DNA from: Ktedonobacterales bacterium
Lineage (GTDB): Bacteria; Chloroflexota; Ktedonobacteria; Ktedonobacterales; DATBGS01
Reading direction: 5' to 3'
NCBI GenBank assembly: GCA_046704085.1
Contig: JBJKSJ010000251.1
Coordinates: forward strand, 12,983 to 76,982
Length of the DNA stretch: 64,000 bases
The notes beneath the pieces are model-generated. The model did no database searches, was not told the DNA's origin, and saw only the letters and a list, made by a program, of their open reading frames with translations. Below are positions 20,905 through 29,318 of this stretch, piece after piece (position 1 is the stretch's first letter; each line of letters begins with the position of its first letter). The translations under genes and the position numbers were made by a program.

Positions 20905-21891
20905 TCAGGGAACGAGGATGAGCTTGCGGCGCGCTGATGCCGCCTGACGCTCCCATGCCTCGGCAGCATGCGCGAGCGGCACGGTTTCTCGCTCTACTGT
21001 GCAGCGGCCAGCAGCAGCGTGCGAGAGGACTTCTGCGAGGGCTTGTGCTTTCTGTTCGTGCGTCAGCGCATTGTTGGTGTAGCCGAGGATAGCATGCAGC
21101 CGGCTGCGAATGATGGCCGATTCAAAGCGCGCGCTGGGGCCGGCAGCCGAACCAAGATTGACCAACCTTCCCTGTGAGGCCAGCACACGGAGAGCCGCTT
21201 CTGCCGGAATGCCACAAAGAGGGTCGATAACAAGATTGAGAGGGCCATCGCAGGCAGCAGTGATGCGCTGGCTGATCTCGTTTGCGTCAGCGCCTGTGAG
21301 GTCAACGACAGCGTCGGCTCCCTGCGTAAGCGCCCGCACGCGAGCAGCTTCGTCCCGTGAGGCTGCGATAACTCGACGAGCGCCAAGCAACTTAGCAGCT
21401 TGCACGGCTACCTGCCCAACCGCGCCGCTCGCACCGAGGACCAGCACCTGCTCCCCATGCTGAAGACGCCCGCGCCAGGTAAGCGCCATCCACGCGGCAA
21501 TCGCAGAGAGTCCGAGCGCTGCGGCCAGGTCATCCTCAATCTGGTCTGGGAGTGCGAGCGCTGCCGACTCCTTAATGACACAATACTGCGCCATGCTGCC
21601 GTCCCCAGGCTTCATGCCGGCGTCGCACGAGAACCACACCCTCTGACCGCGCGCGAGCGTCTCCGATTCCATTATGGAGCCAATGCCCTGCACGCCGGGA
21701 ATGTATGGAAGCGGTGGCGCGCCGAAGTAGGATGTGCCAGACGCGCACAGCAAATCTAACGGACTGATGGGGGCCGCTGTGACCCGTACCAAGGCTTGTC
21801 CCGGCTTGCGCTGAGGCATGGGTCTGGTACCATATTCGGGTGGAGCAGCGTGTTTGCGGATGACTGCCGCTGGCATCTCTTCGCTGGTCAT
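20905..21891 (-). CDS. Zinc-type alcohol dehydrogenase superfamily, NADPH:quinone oxidoreductase-like (MDR)
   Basis: GSMAQYCV, Rossmann motif VLVLGASGAVGQVAVQAAKLLGA, typical QOR length (328 aa). Confidence 0.85.
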   Translation of the reverse strand: MTSEEMPAAVIRKHAAPPEYGTRPMPQRKPGQALVRVTAAPISPLDLLCASGTSYFGAPPLPYIPGVQGIGSIMESETLARGQRVWFSCDAGMKPGDGSMAQYCVIKESAALALPDQIEDDLAAALGLSAIAAWMALTWRGRLQHGEQVLVLGASGAVGQVAVQAAKLLGARRVIAASRDEAARVRALTQGADAVVDLTGADANEISQRITAACDGPLNLVIDPLCGIPAEAALRVLASQGRLVNLGSAAGPSARFESAIIRSRLHAILGYTNNALTHEQKAQALAEVLSHAAAGRCTVERETVPLAHAAEAWERQAASARRKLILVP

Positions 21892-21996: not shown

Positions 21997-23439
21997 TTAT
22001 CGGCCTGTGTACTGGTACGGGTTGTCAATCACATCAACCTTCGCCTGCTCAAGAATCATTCCCTCGGTCCAGGCTTTCTCGCCCATTTTGGAGCGAGCGT
22101 ATTCAACTGTCTTCCCAACGGCTTCCTTAGCCCTGGCAAGATCAATACCGAGCAGGTGGTGATCGTATTTGACGACCTTGCCATCCACCATTACGGTATG
22201 GACGTCTCCGCGCCCAGCCTGGAAGACCACGTGCCCGTAAGGGTGAATGATCGGGAACATCGCCGGCGAATCGTCATTCTTAATCAGGACGAGATCGGCC
22301 TTCTTACCAGGAGTGATGCTGCCGATGAGGCTGTCCATCCCCAGCGCTTGAGCGCCGCCCATCGTTGCCCAGCCCACGACCTGCTCAGCGCGCAGGTGGT
22401 TGGTCATCACGGTTTCGTTGCGCTCGTGCGCTTCCCAGTGTTCGCGGGCGCGGTCCGCGTTGAGGGTGGCGCGCATTGCAGAGAACAGGTCCGAGCTCCA
22501 CCAGACGCTGGTGTCCATCGACAGGGAAACGGGGATGCCGTGCCGCCTGAGCGTCCACGTCGGCGAATAGCCCTGACCAGCACTGTCCTCGCTCTCGGTG
22601 GATATGGATGCGTAGCCGCCTGTAGCCGCGATGCGCTGATAGGAATCCCCAGAAAGCGTTGCCACATGGACGTAGATGTTTTTGGGGGTCATGAAGCCAT
22701 GTTCGTGCATTAAGCGGATGCCGTTATCGTTGGTAGCGCCCCAGACCCCGGCATGAGTGGTCACCGCCAGGTCGAAGTCGCGCGCTGCCTCGAACGCGCC
22801 CTTTTCGGGGAAGCTCGGATCGCCAAGCACATCGAACGCGATTTGCATGCGCAGCAGATCGCTCTTCCCATCAATACGCCGCTTGATGAAGTCGGCAAAC
22901 TCAGGGGTTCTGCTCCACTCCCAGGGCGCGCCAAGCAGGTTGCCATACGCGAGGACGAACCGACCTGGAACCGCCTCAAGCGCGTCAACCGCCGCGTCCG
23001 CATATTCCACCGTTTGTAAGCCATGCGACCAGTCAACGCTTGTGGTGACGCCAGCGTCTACCGCCTCAATGGCGCTGAGGAGATTCCCTGCATAGACATC
23101 TTCTGCGCGGAAATACTTGCCCCAGTTGAGGTAGTAGAACTGGAAGTAGTTCGTGAGCGTCCAATCAGCGCCGTACCCGCGCAGGGCCGTTTGCCACATA
23201 TGGCGGTGCGTGTCAACCATGCCTGGCATCAAGATGCCGTCGGACCCGTCAATCTCCACCGTGCCCTCCGGCACGACAAGCTGGTGCCCGACAGCTTCAA
23301 TGCGCTTATCGACGGCGAGGACATCGCCGCGCTCGATGACCCCCAGAGTTGGGTCAATCGTCAGCACGGTGGCGTTGCGAAACACTACAGGACGGCCTGG
23401 GAGGAAGGGATTACCGTTTGCTGCTGAAACCTGGCTCAT
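21997..23439 (-). CDS. Amidohydrolase family metal-dependent hydrolase/deaminase (Amidohydro_1, AtzA/TrzA/deaminase-like)
   Basis: Metal-binding site PGMVDTHRHMWQT, later HA/HV histidines, and C-terminal GSITPGKKADLVLI typical of the family. RBS GAGGTGAGCAGAATG supports the start at 23439. Confidence 0.85.
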   Translation of the reverse strand: MSQVSAANGNPFLPGRPVVFRNATVLTIDPTLGVIERGDVLAVDKRIEAVGHQLVVPEGTVEIDGSDGILMPGMVDTHRHMWQTALRGYGADWTLTNYFQFYYLNWGKYFRAEDVYAGNLLSAIEAVDAGVTTSVDWSHGLQTVEYADAAVDALEAVPGRFVLAYGNLLGAPWEWSRTPEFADFIKRRIDGKSDLLRMQIAFDVLGDPSFPEKGAFEAARDFDLAVTTHAGVWGATNDNGIRLMHEHGFMTPKNIYVHVATLSGDSYQRIAATGGYASISTESEDSAGQGYSPTWTLRRHGIPVSLSMDTSVWWSSDLFSAMRATLNADRAREHWEAHERNETVMTNHLRAEQVVGWATMGGAQALGMDSLIGSITPGKKADLVLIKNDDSPAMFPIIHPYGHVVFQAGRGDVHTVMVDGKVVKYDHHLLGIDLARAKEAVGKTVEYARSKMGEKAWTEGMILEQAKVDVIDNPYQYTGR

Positions 23440-23584
23440 TCTGCTCACCTCATTGTGTTCTGGCCGCAGAACGCGAAGCTGGCCGCGTGACATCCACGAG
23501 ATACCGTTTGCCTGGCGTCTCTGCCCACGTCCTGGTAGCCGTGTTGCAAGACCTGTTTTCAGGGGCTTAGCTAGTGGTCAACGT

Positions 23585-23609
23585 TGTCCGTATGGCGGAC
23601 AGGCGTCCG
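23585..23609 (-). promoter_or_regulatory. Candidate IclR operator (three half-sites)
   Basis: On the minus strand it reads CGGACG-CC-TGTCCG-CCATA-CGGACA and begins 8 nt after the -10 element. Same architecture as 24722-24746. Confidence 0.55.
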
Positions 23610-23617
23610 CTGCAAAA

Positions 23618-23646
23618 ATATTACCCGATTCGCACATCTGTGTCAA
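23618..23646 (-). promoter_or_regulatory. Sigma-70-like promoter for the amidohydrolase transcript
   Basis: Minus strand TTGACA (23646-23641), 17-nt spacer, TAATAT (23623-23618). Confidence 0.55.
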
Positions 23647-23653
23647 GTATCGC

Positions 23654-23672
23654 GATGCAACTACATTGCATC
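23654..23672. promoter_or_regulatory. Perfect 7-5-7 palindrome in the divergent intergenic region
   Basis: GATGCAA-CTACA-TTGCATC, directly next to the -35 of the minus-strand promoter. Confidence 0.35.
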
Positions 23673-23833
23673 ACTTTGGCGACATGCCAGACGCCATCAG
23701 CAACCAGCAGGAATGTGGGTTAGCATGGACAGCGAGACATACTTTCTGCTACGATAAGCGTGAAGAAAACTACCGCCTGTCGAGCTTCCTTGCAGCGTAG
23801 GTCAGATAAATTTGGTGTGCCAGAGGAGAAAGA

Positions 23834-24670
23834 ATGCGTGGTGAAACAGGACCAGACTTCATCGAAGCGCTCGCTCGTGGCCTGGATGTCATCCGAGCGT
23901 TTGGACCCACCCGACCAACGATGAGTCTGAGCGAGGTGGCTGCTGCTACCGGGCTGGCTCGACCGACGGCCCGCAGGATGCTGCTGACGCTTGAGGAGTT
24001 GGGGTATGGGCGCAGTGGACACGGCGAGTTTGTGCTCACCCCGCGCGTGCTGGAGCTTGGCATGGCCTACATCGGAGCGACCAATCTATGGGACATCGCC
24101 CGCCCACATATGGAACAACTGGTAGGATATACAGGTGAGTCGTCATCACTCGCGCAGCTTGATGGCTCAGACATCGTCTATGTCGCTCGCGTGGCAGTGC
24201 CGAAGATCATCACTATCGCGGTAACCATTGGGACACGTTTTCCGGCCCTTCAGACCTCGCTTGGGAAAGTCTTGCTTGCCGCGCTGTCGCCAGATGAGCT
24301 AGAACGGACGCTCGTTGAGCCAAGCCGCTCTGGCATTACACCGCTCTGGAAGCCGGATAAGGAGGAGCGTGACCAAGTACTCTGCGAGGTGCGCGAAAAG
24401 AGCTGGTCGCTTACTGATGAACACCTGGCCCCCGGCATTCGCTCCATCGCTGCGCCCGTGCGCGACGGCACGAATCAGGTGGTTGCCGCGCTCAATGTCT
24501 CTGTTCATGCAGCCGAGACCAGCATCGAAATTCTTACTCAGAAGTATCTGCCAGTGCTGTTGCAGACTGCTGCTGCCATCAGCGCCGATTGGGGGCAGTG
24601 GCAAAGCCGTCCAGAGATAACGCTTGACAGCAGGCCATCGAGCATCATTACGCAAAGATCGCCTGCTTGA
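23834..24670 (+). CDS. IclR family transcriptional regulator (PcaR/PcaU-like)
   Basis: FIEALARGLDVIRAFGPTRPTMSLSEVAAATGLARPTARRMLLTLEELGY winged HTH, followed by an IclR effector domain (SLAQLDGSDIVYVAR, IRSIAAPV). Confidence 0.9.
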   Translation: MRGETGPDFIEALARGLDVIRAFGPTRPTMSLSEVAAATGLARPTARRMLLTLEELGYGRSGHGEFVLTPRVLELGMAYIGATNLWDIARPHMEQLVGYTGESSSLAQLDGSDIVYVARVAVPKIITIAVTIGTRFPALQTSLGKVLLAALSPDELERTLVEPSRSGITPLWKPDKEERDQVLCEVREKSWSLTDEHLAPGIRSIAAPVRDGTNQVVAALNVSVHAAETSIEILTQKYLPVLLQTAAAISADWGQWQSRPEITLDSRPSSIITQRSPA

Positions 24671-24684
24671 TAACCTTGCGTCTC

Positions 24685-24713
24685 TTGACATCCTCTCTGA
24701 TGTTATCTATACT
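24685..24713 (+). promoter_or_regulatory. Sigma-70-like promoter of the CoA-transferase/LigAB operon
   Basis: TTGACA (24685-24690), 17-nt spacer, TATACT (24708-24713). Confidence 0.6.
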
Positions 24714-24721
24714 TGATTTCA

Positions 24722-24746
24722 CGGACAGGTGTCCGTTGTGCGGACA
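24722..24746 (+). promoter_or_regulatory. Candidate IclR operator (three half-sites)
   Basis: CGGACA-GG-TGTCCG-TTGTG-CGGACA, starting 8 nt after the -10 element. Confidence 0.55.
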
Positions 24747-24841
24747 AACCTCACGACGCGCTGGCGATTGGCTACCACGCGCCATGCACAATTGCCATTC
24801 GTGCCAACCGCTCACCAGGATTTACCGGAGGCGTGAACCTC

Positions 24842-26074
24842 ATGCCGGAGCAGGATAACGCGCAGCAGAACCAGAGTGCCGACATTCGGCCAGCCCCGCT
24901 TGATGGTCTGCTGATTGCCGACTTCTCGCGGGTACTTGCCGGTCCGTACTGCACCATGCTGCTGAGTGACCTTGGTGCAACGGTGATTAAAGTCGAAAGC
25001 CCCGCTGGGGACGAGACTCGAACCTGGTTGCCACCAGACCGCAATGGGGTAGCGACCTATTACCTGGCTATCAACCGCAACAAGCGCTCCATTGTCCTCG
25101 ATTTCCAAAACCCCACCGACCAGCAACTGGCGCAGGAACTTGCGGCCAGGGCCGACATCCTTATTGAAAACTTCAAGCCCGGCGGACTTAAGCGCTTTGG
25201 CCTGGACTATGATACCGTCCGGCAGCGGAACGCCGGGATCATCTACGCATCCATCAGTGGTTTCGGGACGGCGCAGGGGGCATCGCTCCCCGGTTATGAC
25301 CTCATCGTGCAGGCGGTGTCTGGATTGATGAGTATGACGGGTGCGCCTGATGGCCCGGCCTATCGCTCCGGCATCGCGGTCTTTGATGTGATGGCCGGGC
25401 TGCACTCAGCCATCGGCATTCTGGCTGCCCTCAACCACCGCAGCCGTACCGGTGAAGGCCAGCATATCGAAGTGAGTTTGCTCGCTTCGGCGCTTTCGGG
25501 ACTGGTCAACCATACGATGGCTTATGTGGCTGGCGGCGTTGTTCCGCACCGCATGGGCAACGCGCACCCAAGCCTCTTCCCCTACGAGCCGCTGCCTACA
25601 GGGGACCAGGAGTTGGTGATCGCTGTTGGCAACAATGGGCAGTTCATCAAGCTGTGTGAAACCCTCGACTGTTCTGAACTGGCGCAAGACCCGCGATTTG
25701 CCAACACCGAGGACCGCACCCACAACCGCGAAGCGCTGCGCCCGCTGCTGGTTGAGCGGCTGCGCGCCAGAACGGCAAGCGAATGGTTCCATCTGTTAAA
25801 CGCCGCTGGCGTGCCATGTGGCCCGATCAACAACATTGGAGAGGGCGTCAGGCTTGCCCAGGAACTGGGGCTGAACCCCATCGTCGAGGTTGGCTCCGGT
25901 GATGACGCGGTGCCCATGATTCGACATCCGATCTCATTCTCGCTGACGCCTCCGCGCCACACACTGCCGCCGCCAGCACTTGGGCAGGACAGCGAGCAGA
26001 TTCGCGCCTGGCTCAGCCAGCCAGCACGCGGCAACCCGGGGGAACTCAAACCGGCCAGCGCATCCGCAGAATAA
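24842..26074 (+). CDS. Family III CoA-transferase (CaiB/BaiF/Frc family)
   Basis: LDGLLIADFSRVLAGPYCTMLLSDLGATVIKVE, catalytic Asp region GYDLIVQAVSGLMSMTG, NAHPSLFPY. GGAGG RBS before the ATG at 24842. The upstream extension to 24713 overlaps the promoter and operator. Confidence 0.9.
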   Translation: MPEQDNAQQNQSADIRPAPLDGLLIADFSRVLAGPYCTMLLSDLGATVIKVESPAGDETRTWLPPDRNGVATYYLAINRNKRSIVLDFQNPTDQQLAQELAARADILIENFKPGGLKRFGLDYDTVRQRNAGIIYASISGFGTAQGASLPGYDLIVQAVSGLMSMTGAPDGPAYRSGIAVFDVMAGLHSAIGILAALNHRSRTGEGQHIEVSLLASALSGLVNHTMAYVAGGVVPHRMGNAHPSLFPYEPLPTGDQELVIAVGNNGQFIKLCETLDCSELAQDPRFANTEDRTHNREALRPLLVERLRARTASEWFHLLNAAGVPCGPINNIGEGVRLAQELGLNPIVEVGSGDDAVPMIRHPISFSLTPPRHTLPPPALGQDSEQIRAWLSQPARGNPGELKPASASAE

Positions 26075-26124: not shown

Positions 26125-26955
26125 ATGGGAGCCGCTGAGCAAGGGGGACAGGCGAAATATCCCACTGGGATTGGAACGTCTGATGTCAACAGTATTCACC
26201 TGCTTGGTCATGATCTCGCGGGCGAGTTGATTGGCAACATCAGCTTTGGCGAACTGGCGCTCTGGCTCGCCACGCAGCAGCGACCTACCCCGCAGCAGGT
26301 GCGCGTCTTCGAGGCGGTGCTTGTCTCGCTGGCCGATCACGGCTTTACGCCCACTGCCATTGCGGCCCGTCTGACTCTGTACAGCGCTCCAGATGCGCTC
26401 CAGGGCGCGATAGCAGCGGGTCTCCTGGGTGGCGGCTCGCGGTTCCTCGGCGTCACAGAAGATACAGGACGATTCCTTGCTCGCGTGCTGGCAACCGTCA
26501 AAGGCAACCTTCCAACAACCGATGAGCAGTGGGACGCTCTGGCTCGCAAAGCAGTTTCTGAGCAGCGTGCCGCTGGTCGCTTTGTCCCAGGCTTGGGCCA
26601 CCCGGTCCATAAAAATGGCGACCCTCGTACCCCTGTCATCATAGCCATTGCCGCGCAGGAGGGCCTGCGCGGGCCGCATCTGCGCCTGTTCGAGGCCATT
26701 GGTCGCGTGCATGCCGAGATACTTGGCCGCAAACTTCCGCTCAATGGCGCTGGCGTGGGTGGCGCGGCGCTCGCCGACATCGGCTTGCCGCCTGAACTGC
26801 TGCGCGGCGTGGCCTTGCTTGCTCGCGCAGCGGGGCTGCTTGGGCACATTGCCGAAGAAATGCGTAACCCCATCGCGCCCGCTATTTATGCTTCGGTTGA
26901 CCGGAACGCTGTCTATCAGCCAGGGAGCAGCGCCGACGACACAGAACAGCGCTAG
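26125..26955 (+). CDS. Citrate synthase-fold protein, short citryl-CoA lyase-like type
   Basis: 276 aa. VLVSLADHGFTPTA, VPGLGHPVHKNGDPR (catalytic His motif of the citrate synthase family), LPLNGAGV, ARAAGLLGHIAEE. It lacks the N-terminal region of full-length citrate synthases. Confidence 0.8.
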   Translation: MGAAEQGGQAKYPTGIGTSDVNSIHLLGHDLAGELIGNISFGELALWLATQQRPTPQQVRVFEAVLVSLADHGFTPTAIAARLTLYSAPDALQGAIAAGLLGGGSRFLGVTEDTGRFLARVLATVKGNLPTTDEQWDALARKAVSEQRAAGRFVPGLGHPVHKNGDPRTPVIIAIAAQEGLRGPHLRLFEAIGRVHAEILGRKLPLNGAGVGGAALADIGLPPELLRGVALLARAAGLLGHIAEEMRNPIAPAIYASVDRNAVYQPGSSADDTEQR

Positions 26956-27008: not shown

Positions 27009-27869
27009 ATGGCAAAAATCGTCGCTGTCCTCGCCACCACGCACCATCCATTCTTCTACCGCGCCAGCACCTCGCCGCCTGAGAGCCGGCCCGACTTTGC
27101 GGATGAGTGGGTGCGCAAGGTGCTGGCCTACCGCGAGACGCTGACCCGCGCCAAACCGGACGTCCTGGTGATGGTTGGTTCTGACCACTTCCACCAGTTG
27201 TTCTACGATAACATGCCGCAGTTCCTCATCGGAAAGGCCCCTTTCTACGAGGGGAACTACTACAATGAGGAGCGCGAGTTTGGACTGCCCCGCATGTTCC
27301 TCAAGGGGCACGAAGAACTCTCGGCGTATCTGCTGCGCGCCGGGCTAGATGCCGGTTTCGATCTCGCCTTCAGCAATGAACTGCGAGTAGATCACAGCAT
27401 TACTTGCCCCATTATTACGACCCGCCCGCAAGCGGACCTGCCCATCGTGCCTATCTACACGAATATCTTTGCGCCGCCTCTGCCGCAGCCCTGGCGATAC
27501 GTCCAGTTGGGCCGCACCCTGCGCAAGTTGCTCGAAGACTGGCCGAGCGATCAGCGTGTCGCTGTCATTGGTACGGGCCACCTGTCTCTCGAACTAGGCG
27601 GGCCGCGTCAGTTTGGCCCGCATGGGCCTGACCCGGACTTTGACCGCAAAGCCGTCGAATGGATTGCCAATGGCGACATCGAGGGCGCGTTACGCGACGT
27701 CTCGCTTGACAGCCTCTGGGAGCCGGGCAATGCCACGCATGGCTTCCTCGACTTCATGCTGATGATGGGCGTCGCCGGAGAAGTGAAGGCCGATTACGCT
27801 GATACCCTCGATTTGTTTCACACGATGGAAGCCTACTTTACCTGGTATCCGAATGGGGTGGAAGCATGA
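27009..27869 (+). CDS. Class III extradiol ring-cleavage dioxygenase, catalytic LigB-type subunit
   Basis: TTHHPFF (metal His), VMVGSDHFHQLF, VDHSITCPI, VIGTGHLSLELGG. AAAGGAGG RBS. Confidence 0.85.
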   Translation: MAKIVAVLATTHHPFFYRASTSPPESRPDFADEWVRKVLAYRETLTRAKPDVLVMVGSDHFHQLFYDNMPQFLIGKAPFYEGNYYNEEREFGLPRMFLKGHEELSAYLLRAGLDAGFDLAFSNELRVDHSITCPIITTRPQADLPIVPIYTNIFAPPLPQPWRYVQLGRTLRKLLEDWPSDQRVAVIGTGHLSLELGGPRQFGPHGPDPDFDRKAVEWIANGDIEGALRDVSLDSLWEPGNATHGFLDFMLMMGVAGEVKADYADTLDLFHTMEAYFTWYPNGVEA

Positions 27870-28228
27870 GCAAATATCTTCTTAATAAGTTTCTCTTCAC
27901 TATTGACCGTGACCCCGAACTGGTTGAGCGCTACCGCGTAGACCCACGTGGAACCGTTACCTGGTGGGAAAATGAGCGGGCTAACATCATCTTGAACCTG
28001 CCGGAAGCTGAATGCTGCACCTGGCAGAAGTTCACCGACGAAGAGCGCGAGGCGCTGGCAACACATAACTATGTCAAGCTCTTTGAGCTTGGCGCGCATA
28101 ATTTCCTGACGCTCACGCTCTTTATTGCCCTGTTCGAGCGAGATTATGAGGAACCGCTGGCTTTTCAGCGCGAATATGGGCGCAATCTTCAGCACTGGAA
28201 AGTGCCCTACCCGGACATCATCACATAA
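27866..28228 (+). CDS. LigA-like small subunit of the extradiol dioxygenase
   Basis: 120 aa. MSKYLLNKFLFTIDRDPELVERYRVDP...FTDEEREAL...YVKLFELGAHNFLTLTL matches the all-helical LigA pattern. Start overlaps the ligB-type stop (ATGA). Confidence 0.65.
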   Translation: MSKYLLNKFLFTIDRDPELVERYRVDPRGTVTWWENERANIILNLPEAECCTWQKFTDEEREALATHNYVKLFELGAHNFLTLTLFIALFERDYEEPLAFQREYGRNLQHWKVPYPDIIT

Positions 28229-28292: not shown

Positions 28293-29318
28293 GTGATTGA
28301 TAGACTGTTGACGACGGTTATAGGAAGCTATCCGCAACCCGAATGGCTGGTGGACCGTAAGAACTTGCAGAGTCGGCTGCCGCCGCGTATCCGGGCAAAG
28401 GAAATCTGGCGCATCCCAGAGCCGCTGCTCCAACAGGCCCAGGACGATGCGACCCTGCTCGCCATTCGTGACATGGAGCGCGCCGGCGTCGATATTATCT
28501 CTGACGGGGAGATACGCCGGGAGAGTTATTCCAACCGCTTTGCCACGGCATTAAATGGGATGGACCTCGATAACCCTGGGGTGGCTATCGACCGCACCGG
28601 CCACTCCAACCCTGTGCCGCATGTCGTCGGCCCGATCCGTCGCTTGCATCCAGTGGAGGCGGGCGACGTGGAGTTTCTGCGCCACAACACCGACCGCCGC
28701 ATTAAAATCACAGTGCCAGGCCCGTTCACCGTCTCCCAGCAGGCACAGGATGACTATTACCACGATGAAAAAGCATTGGCAATGGATATTGCTGCCGCCG
28801 TGAACGAGGAGATCAAAAGCTTGCAGGCTGCCGGAGCCGATGTGGTACAGATCGATGAACCCTATCTGCAAGCGAGGGCGGAAAAAGCGAAGGCATATGG
28901 GGTAGAGGTGATCAATCGGTCGCTGGAAGGGATTGAAGGCACAACGGCGCTGCACCTCTGCTTTGGCTACGCGGCCATTGTGCATAATCGGCCTGGGCAG
29001 TATTCGTTCCTCACGGAACTGCGTGATTGCGTAGTGAAGCAGATTGCGATAGAGGCGGCGCAGCCACGCCTTGATCTGTCCATCCTGCGTCAATTAGCCA
29101 ATAAAACCATTATTCTCGGTGTCTTGAATCTAGGCGATATGGAGGTGGAGACACCAGAGATTGTGGCCGGCAGAATACGCGCAGCCCTGGAATATGTCGA
29201 GCCGGAGCGGCTGATCCTGGCCCCAGACTGTGGCATGAAATACCTGCCGCGAGATGTCGCTTTTGGCAAGCTGTGCGCTTTGGTCAAAGGAGCCAGAATG
29301 ATTCGACAAGAATTATAA
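28293..29318 (+). CDS. Cobalamin-independent methionine synthase C-terminal-domain family protein (Meth_synt_2, MetE-like)
   Basis: TTVIGSYPQPEWL, ISDGEIRRESY, QIDEPYL, zinc ligands in HLCFGY and APDCGMKYL. 341 aa, single domain. Confidence 0.8.
   Translation: MIDRLLTTVIGSYPQPEWLVDRKNLQSRLPPRIRAKEIWRIPEPLLQQAQDDATLLAIRDMERAGVDIISDGEIRRESYSNRFATALNGMDLDNPGVAIDRTGHSNPVPHVVGPIRRLHPVEAGDVEFLRHNTDRRIKITVPGPFTVSQQAQDDYYHDEKALAMDIAAAVNEEIKSLQAAGADVVQIDEPYLQARAEKAKAYGVEVINRSLEGIEGTTALHLCFGYAAIVHNRPGQYSFLTELRDCVVKQIAIEAAQPRLDLSILRQLANKTIILGVLNLGDMEVETPEIVAGRIRAALEYVEPERLILAPDCGMKYLPRDVAFGKLCALVKGARMIRQEL

Follow-up and report, generated by a model that had tools for sequence, protein, structure and literature searches.

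Twin three-box operators predicted for an IclR-family regulator at two promoters of a ring-cleavage gene cluster in Ktedonobacterales and Actinomycetota

PobR and PcaU, two regulators of the IclR family, activate pobA and the pca genes from sites upstream of the promoters that they control. Across the family, similar boxes occur in two arrangements, GKTYCRY-W3-4-RYGRAMC and TGRAACA-N1-2-TGTTYCA, and in 32 IclR orthologous groups three boxes of alternating direction combine both (Suvorova and Gelfand 2021, PMC8222616). The same study gives the PobR site of Acinetobacter baylyi ADP1 as TTGTCCGATSATCGGACAR and reports that PcaU binding needs the third box (PMC8222616). Streptomyces coelicolor PobR (SCO3209; PDB 5w1e) is a repressor that protects one imperfect inverted repeat of ~30 bp beside the pobA promoter; the substrate of the pathway releases it (PMC5814911). 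Corynebacterium glutamicum PcaR and the Rhodococcus CatR-type proteins also belong to the IclR repressors; their targets are aromatic catabolic operons, and their palindromes have the form GTNCG-N3-5-CGNAC (PMC8222616, Table 1). Here we analyzed a 64,000-nucleotide stretch of a metagenome-assembled genome from an uncultured member of the Ktedonobacterales (the window; C251:12983-76982 in a 5.38-Mb assembly of 451 contigs), in which a gene for an IclR-family protein lies between two promoters that each carry a predicted three-box operator. One promoter, P_AMH, faces an amidohydrolase gene, and the other, P_CoAT, faces an operon that starts with a coenzyme A (CoA)-transferase gene and includes a gene for a LigB-type extradiol dioxygenase. 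Most probably, as judged from the sites and their conservation, the adjacent IclR protein represses both promoters via these twin operators (O_AMH and O_CoAT) until a pathway metabolite releases it.

The plus-strand element at positions 24685-24746 reads TTGACA-N17-TATACT-N8-CGGACA-GG-TGTCCG-TTGTG-CGGACA, and the minus-strand element at 23646-23585 reads TTGACA-N17-TAATAT-N8-CGGACG-CC-TGTCCG-CCATA-CGGACA, both following the pattern TTGACA-N17-TAnnnT-N8-CGGACR-NN-TGTCCG-N5-CGGACA (Table 1). On re-reading, the coordinates, the spacers (17, 8, 2, and 5 nt), and the half-sites that had been given for them in an earlier note on this DNA (the original prediction) proved exact. P_CoAT and P_AMH were the top sigma-70-like matches in a 9.7-kb scan (11/12 and 10/12, respectively). 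Counted by eye, the two copies agree at 26/30 motif positions versus 4/32 spacer positions; motif positions kept beside divergent spacers indicate ancient functional twins, not a recent sequence duplication. The "duplicated" module of the original prediction thus holds for function and fails for recent copying. A sequence logo of the Ktedonobacterales sites showed no conservation flanking the 25-mer and hence no fourth box, which indicates that the operator consists of the three boxes only.

Boxes 2 and 3 (TGTCCG-N5-CGGACA) have the half-site and spacing of the A. baylyi PobR operator and fall into the "TGT-11-ACA" group of IclR sites, and boxes 1 and 2 (CGGACR-NN-YGTCCG) represent the second arrangement, of group-2 type with a spacer of 1-2 nt. 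Because both arrangements are present, the three-box layout is of an already described kind. In 107 distinct sites the group-1 palindrome took the form TGTCCG-Y-NNN-R-CGGACA, with C or T at position 15 in 103 and A or G at position 19 in 106; the spacing of YGGACR-NN-YGTCCG, which brings in the third box, was invariant in all sites. Compared to Acinetobacter PobR and PcaU, however, the site here lies downstream of the −10 hexamer, only 2 nt separate the extra box from the palindrome, Y-NNN-R takes the place of an AT-rich sequence in the central 5 nt, and the targets are not β-ketoadipate genes. S. coelicolor PobR is a fusion of two IclR units with one target gene, whereas the protein described here is a single-unit IclR predicted to serve two promoters with a three-box site at each. 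C. glutamicum PcaR and the Rhodococcus CatR-type proteins differ in half-site (GTTCGC or GTACG versus GTCCG here) and in targets, and PMC8222616 Table 1 shows no three-box array for them. The motif of Pseudomonas putida LigR1/LigR2, described in a preprint, is a different one.

Genomic searches placed the operator at a single locus. At ≤3 mismatches, 0.15 occurrences of the 25-nt pattern are expected per window; three matches were found, two of them exact, and 0/100 shuffles reached that number. In the whole assembly, the 25-nt pattern occurs at these two places only, the sub-palindromes CGGACRNNYGTCCG and TGTCCG-N5-CGGACA are likewise confined to them, and allowing ≤1 mismatch in 14 core positions revealed no further site. 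A genome-wide pattern search had been suggested in the original prediction, and its outcome, two copies per genome, shows that the motif is not a dispersed repeat. At ≤2 mismatches, the assembly gave 22 matches, fewer than the 228 of a reversed-pattern control, and none of them can be claimed as an extra regulon member. A 25-mer, TGGACCGTAGTCCGGCGAACGGCGT, was seen at three places (C153:70, C270:70, and C320:12328), in two cases 70 nt away from the end of a contig, and represents a repeat of some kind that has no relation to the operator.

We computed the conservation of the elements in sequence and position, and their co-occurrence with the regulator, in addition to their existence and uniqueness in the genome. 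Regulator orthologues of 76-87% identity were present in 11/40 related genomes from three families. In 18 orthologous sites from 10 genomes, the −35 hexamer, the TA...T of the −10 hexamer, and the three boxes are invariant, and the spacers vary freely; such a pattern at orthologous loci is what a textbook case of phylogenetic footprinting looks like. Among 41 relatives, the site was found in 12/12 genomes with an IclR orthologue versus 1/29 without (Fisher p = 1.6e-9), a co-occurrence that bears out the proposed link between the motif and the adjacent iclR gene, and 11 of the 12 regulator-carrying genomes hold exactly two copies. Within the order, the operator core is present in 45/169 genomes, as exactly two copies in 34, three in 2, and one in 9; paired copies mostly lie on one contig, on opposite strands and 1.1-1.3 kb apart. 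Two copies per genome at one locus imply a strictly local regulon.

The same arrangement recurs in a second phylum. A scan of species-representative genomes yielded 65 loci in Ktedonobacterales and Actinomycetota, the latter including Nonomuraea, Actinoplanes, Rugosimonospora, Amycolatopsis, and Saccharothrix with a regulator identity of 63-72%, and both phyla share the gene set in several gene orders. All 59 related loci with a CoA-transferase gene, in both phyla, have a three-box site upstream of it, and in 58 of them the nearest site is co-oriented with the gene; the remaining locus, L032, also has a canonical site in the same orientation. Ahead of the amidohydrolase gene, the site is present in 20/21 Ktedonobacterales loci, and at least 23 of the 38 actinomycete loci have a separate variant site there. 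The site is therefore kept ahead of the same two units in two phyla, as expected from the two-transcription-unit pattern first proposed, and this shared placement shows that the two-promoter, two-operator design is ancestral to the cluster and no oddity of the present genome. Metagenomes contributed >500 relatives of the amidohydrolase, and among the best 80 loci the site was found in most of those with enough upstream sequence. The site is thus both adjacent to and co-occurrent with its cognate regulator gene, which adjoins it in at least 60 loci through several gene-order rearrangements in the two phyla.

The regulator itself has the two parts that define the IclR family, an N-terminal helix-turn-helix (HTH) domain (HTH_IclR, PF09339, 1.4e-16, residues 12-58) together with an effector-binding domain at the C terminus (IclR_C, PF01614, 8.6e-35, residues 78-251). 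It shares the PcaR/PcaU/PobR-like HTH, with a recognition helix of the form ...R.AARR.L.TL. Its best solved relatives are 5w1e (S. coelicolor PobR, 6e-65), 2ia2, and 8eju, and the solved relatives include two Rhodococcus RHA1 regulators and one Pca-regulon regulator. The flanking genes are not β-ketoadipate (pca/pob) genes and are of other types according to Pfam and NCBIfam. As originally stated, it is the only regulator of the locus: no other regulator-like open reading frame (ORF) was seen in 16-34 kb.

The position of the operators points to the sign of control. TTGAC precedes the operator start by 35-38 nt (mode, 37) in 41/42 distinct Ktedonobacterales sites and by 34-40 nt (mode, 37) in 39/40 metagenome sites. 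The half-site array had been placed over the predicted +1, the position of a repressor, and this placement stands up at a fixed distance in 80/82 distinct Ktedonobacterales-type sites. If transcription begins ~7 nt past the −10 hexamer, and given the 17-nt spacer, the operator would span ~+2 to +26 and overlap the stretch that RNA polymerase occupies (about −55 to +20). From the computed patterns we infer the following on binding and repression by IclR, the points at which transcription starts, the oligomeric state of the protein, and its effector. The IclR protein (23834-24670) would bind the two 25-bp three-box operators, with the consensus YGGACR-NN-YGTCCG-YNNNR-CGGACR, each of which follows, at a distance of ~8 nt, the −10 hexamer of a near-consensus, putatively sigma-70-type promoter. 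The effector-free protein, probably a tetramer, would sit on both operators and block open-complex formation or promoter escape at P_AMH and P_CoAT. P_AMH would drive the amidohydrolase gene and probably the oxidoreductase gene, and P_CoAT would drive the CoA-transferase, citryl-CoA-lyase-like, LigB, LigA-like, and MetE-like genes. A pathway substrate or intermediate would bind the C-terminal domain and release the protein, so that both arms come on together, and iclR would be transcribed from a separate, weaker promoter free of an operator.

Three observations weigh against this interpretation. The regulator scored 264.2 bits against TIGR02431 (PcaR/PcaU/PobR), under the 284.75 cutoff, and is a close outgroup of that family, not a curated member. 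Acinetobacter PobR and PcaU and Pseudomonas PcaR, the most thoroughly studied relatives that have the same half-site, are activators. Finally, the amidohydrolase-side site of actinomycetes (CGAACR or CGGACR, then NN-YGTCCG-N5-CGGTCA) is inverted with respect to transcription and has variant outer boxes; it follows that the site need not have one fixed orientation, and details of the mechanism may be different.

The alternative that fares best is that the same IclR protein occupies the sites and acts as an effector-dependent activator, like proteobacterial PobR, PcaU, and PcaR. The activator PobR has this half-site and spacing, the third box is also used by PcaU, PobR, and HmgR (PMC8222616), and the protein is closest to the PcaR/PcaU/PobR family. 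We nevertheless consider this unlikely. The sites lie past the −10 hexamer at a fixed distance, and an operator at ~+2 to +26 would make the classical activator role, recruitment of RNA polymerase, impossible; promoters matching at 11/12 and 10/12 are near consensus anyway and should not need activation, and the closest solved relative is a repressor. Taken together, the sign of control here is likely repression.

It is less probable again, and in our view quite improbable, that another transcription factor, encoded elsewhere, binds the three-box element and that the adjacency of iclR is incidental. Boxes of the GTCC/GGAC type are common to many IclR paralogues (PMC8222616, supplement), so cross-binding could occur, but the strict phyletic co-occurrence with this particular orthologue, the persistence of the regulator gene beside the sites despite rearranged gene orders in two phyla, and the want of any second regulator-like ORF nearby argue for the adjacent protein. 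Slightly further down the scale stands the view that the inverted repeats act as RNA, in alternative hairpins of the 5′ untranslated region (box 1:box 2 versus box 2:box 3). With +1 as predicted the boxes would be transcribed, and boxes 2 and 3 could pair over 6 bp around a 5-nt loop; a hairpin of boxes 1 and 2, however, would be left with a loop of 2 nt, the boxes are invariant rather than covarying, and the variable positions flanking the stems show no compensation (pairable cells, 64/107 versus 72 expected and 74/107 versus 69 expected). Actinomycetes use the site in both orientations, which fits DNA recognition; together with the lack of compensatory change, this indicates a DNA site, not an RNA hairpin. 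Chance resemblance or a functionless dispersed repeat, for which nothing speaks except that each hexamer is short, can be set aside given 2 exact matches where 0.15 were expected, the restriction of the motif to this locus at two copies per genome, and conservation across phyla.

Repression by the adjacent IclR protein thus gives a testable predicted regulator-operator pair for an uncharacterized ring-cleavage cluster that is widespread in soil Ktedonobacterales and actinomycetes. As the effector should be a pathway substrate or intermediate, effector screening offers a direct route to the compound that the cluster degrades, and the regulator could also yield a biosensor. A three-box site that is invariant across two phyla and occurs in both orientations is, moreover, well suited for testing the "alternative dimerisation" hypothesis on IclR proteins (PMC8222616). 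To a specialist, the regulatory logic itself is unsurprising and the layout is of a known type; what differs here, going by the predicted sites and targets, is that the targets are not pca/pob genes, that the site lies past the −10 hexamer, and that the orthologous group spans two phyla, comprising Ktedonobacterales and Streptosporangiales/Micromonosporales-type actinomycetes. We found neither this group nor its regulon in the searchable parts of the PMC8222616 tables, which have no Ktedonobacter, Actinoplanes, or LigB entries there, a result that does not prove absence from the tables as a whole. A literature search on the gene cluster itself returned nothing relevant.

The iclR gene has a promoter of its own, which is kept in 12/13 other aligned Ktedonobacterales loci and is operator-free, making autoregulation improbable in this lineage. 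In most actinomycete loci, iclR lies downstream of the amidohydrolase gene in the same orientation; if co-transcribed with it, the actinomycete iclR would be autoregulated.

The coordinates of all features are given in Table 1. The start of the amidohydrolase gene is ATG 23439, fixed by its orthologues, rather than the longest-ORF start at 23493, since the ribosome-binding site (RBS) GAGGTGAG and ATGAGCCAG are both conserved. The 54 nt between the two ATG codons are a non-coding leader, and by our own reading the orthologue at L016 has an in-frame stop within them. The oxidoreductase gene is probably co-transcribed with the amidohydrolase gene: the 105-nt gap between the two contains no terminator-like site and no operator. 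The oxidoreductase gene accompanies the cluster in both phyla, and its inclusion in the regulon is therefore plausible. The closest solved relative of the dioxygenase is gallate dioxygenase (3e-17); solved-structure searches with the dioxygenase, the amidohydrolase, and the MetE-like protein returned distant relatives only, from which no substrate can be inferred.

Table 1. Positions of genes, promoters, predicted operators, and leader elements in the window
Feature	Coordinates	Strand	Basis or remark
Zinc-alcohol dehydrogenase/quinone-oxidoreductase-like gene	20905..21891	-	Pfam
Amidohydrolase gene, TRZ/ATZ-like, Amidohydro_1	21997..23439	-	Pfam; NCBIfam PRK08204 376.6 bits, cutoff 391
Conserved ~105-nt leader element	23437-23540	-	Ends at RBS
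Amidohydrolase mRNA 5′ leader, 145 nt	23440..23584	-	Between O_AMH and start
O_AMH, predicted operator CGGACG-CC-TGTCCG-CCATA-CGGACA	23585..23609	-	Span ~+2 to +26 predicted from −10
O_AMH boxes	Box 1, 23604-23609; box 2, 23596-23601; box 3, 23585-23590	-	
P_AMH −10 hexamer TAATAT, 17-nt spacer	23618..23623	-	Read and promoter scan; TA...T invariant in alignments
P_AMH −35 hexamer TTGACA	23641..23646	-	Direct read and promoter scan; CTTGACA invariant in orthologous sites
iclR promoter TGGACA-N18-TACGAT, preceded by TG	23726..23755	+	Scan; no operator
IclR-family regulator gene, PcaR/PcaU/PobR-like, 278 aa	23834..24670	+	Pfam, TIGR02431, solved relatives
P_CoAT −35 hexamer TTGACA	24685..24690	+	Direct read and promoter scan
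P_CoAT −10 hexamer TATACT, 17-nt spacer	24708..24713	+	Direct read and promoter scan
O_CoAT, predicted operator CGGACA-GG-TGTCCG-TTGTG-CGGACA	24722..24746	+	Span ~+2 to +26 predicted from −10
Family III CoA-transferase gene, first of operon, start ATG 24842	24842..26074	+	PF02515 3.7e-117
Citryl-CoA-lyase-like gene, citrate-synthase fold	26125..26955	+	PF00285; NF004868 286.5 bits, cutoff 193
LigB-type extradiol dioxygenase gene	27009..27869	+	PF02900 1.8e-21
Small LigA-like subunit gene	27866..28228	+	PF07746 weak, 4.1e-4, below cutoff
Single-domain MetE-like (Meth_synt_2) protein gene	28293..29318	+	Last operon gene in Ktedonobacterales

The amidohydrolase leader shows unusual conservation beside promoter spacers that are randomized. 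A covariance model built on the final ~105 nt of the leader collected 73 loci and matched exactly once per genome in 37/169 Ktedonobacterales genomes; in the window's genome, this locus was the only match. The leader is thus a single-copy element, always at this locus, and does not precede several different genes or operons. Within it, a modestly supported long-range helix joins GGCU..CAGGACGYG with CRCGUCCUG..AGCC, in which 84.8% of cells are paired versus ~30% in slid controls. In the model-fitted alignment, 23 helix cells were changed on both sides versus 10.6 in shuffled controls (0/500), and a tree-robust measure on this alignment was marginal, with 9 double-changed pairs versus 6.4 (41/500). 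A set of 15 leader sequences alone gave no covariation signal. Consensus folding from plain MAFFT alignments gave no or weak structure, nor was the helix recovered by RNAalifold alone; it appeared only with anchored alignment and RIBOSUM scoring and with covariance-model alignment. Searches of both leaders against Rfam returned no match at E up to 1. In short natural variants the inner ~60 nt are absent, and the helix is kept as a plain hairpin. One possibility, and not the one we favor, is that this ~105-nt structured leader is a new cis-regulatory RNA, a second layer of control on the amidohydrolase beside the IclR operator. If so, it would be a small-molecule- or protein-sensing leader specific to the cluster, and the two arms could answer different signals. 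The helix arms hold GGACG and CGTCC, which resemble the IclR boxes, so auxiliary DNA boxes are a rival reading of the leader.

The leader of the CoA-transferase gene (24747-24841, plus strand) also has a recognizable block: in many Ktedonobacterales loci (among L013-L027), a conserved CGCT(C)GCTACCA stands ~30-40 nt before the RBS. GCTACCA is common to this block and to the 5′ arm of the amidohydrolase leader helix.

The cluster as a whole (regulator, amidohydrolase, CoA-transferase, lyase-like, and LigB/LigA-like genes, often with the oxidoreductase gene) is common to Ktedonobacterales (L013-L032) and Actinomycetota (L033-L077), with 60-82% protein identity, several actinomycete families, and at least three gene orders. 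This sharing suggests lateral transfer between these soil groups. One of the records, L031, is labelled as a Gemmatimonadaceae metagenome-assembled genome and carries a typical operator and a regulator 80% identical to the Ktedonobacterales one; it is probably a case of mis-binning, otherwise of transfer. In three metagenome loci (L091, L092, and L129), the two modules adjoin each other back to back, without an iclR gene between them and with ~100 bp separating the operators, an arrangement intermediate between the Ktedonobacterales and actinomycete layouts. A further metagenome locus, L082, a close relative, has a TTGACA promoter ~100 nt upstream of the amidohydrolase start, with neither operator nor leader, and may be a natural deregulated variant.

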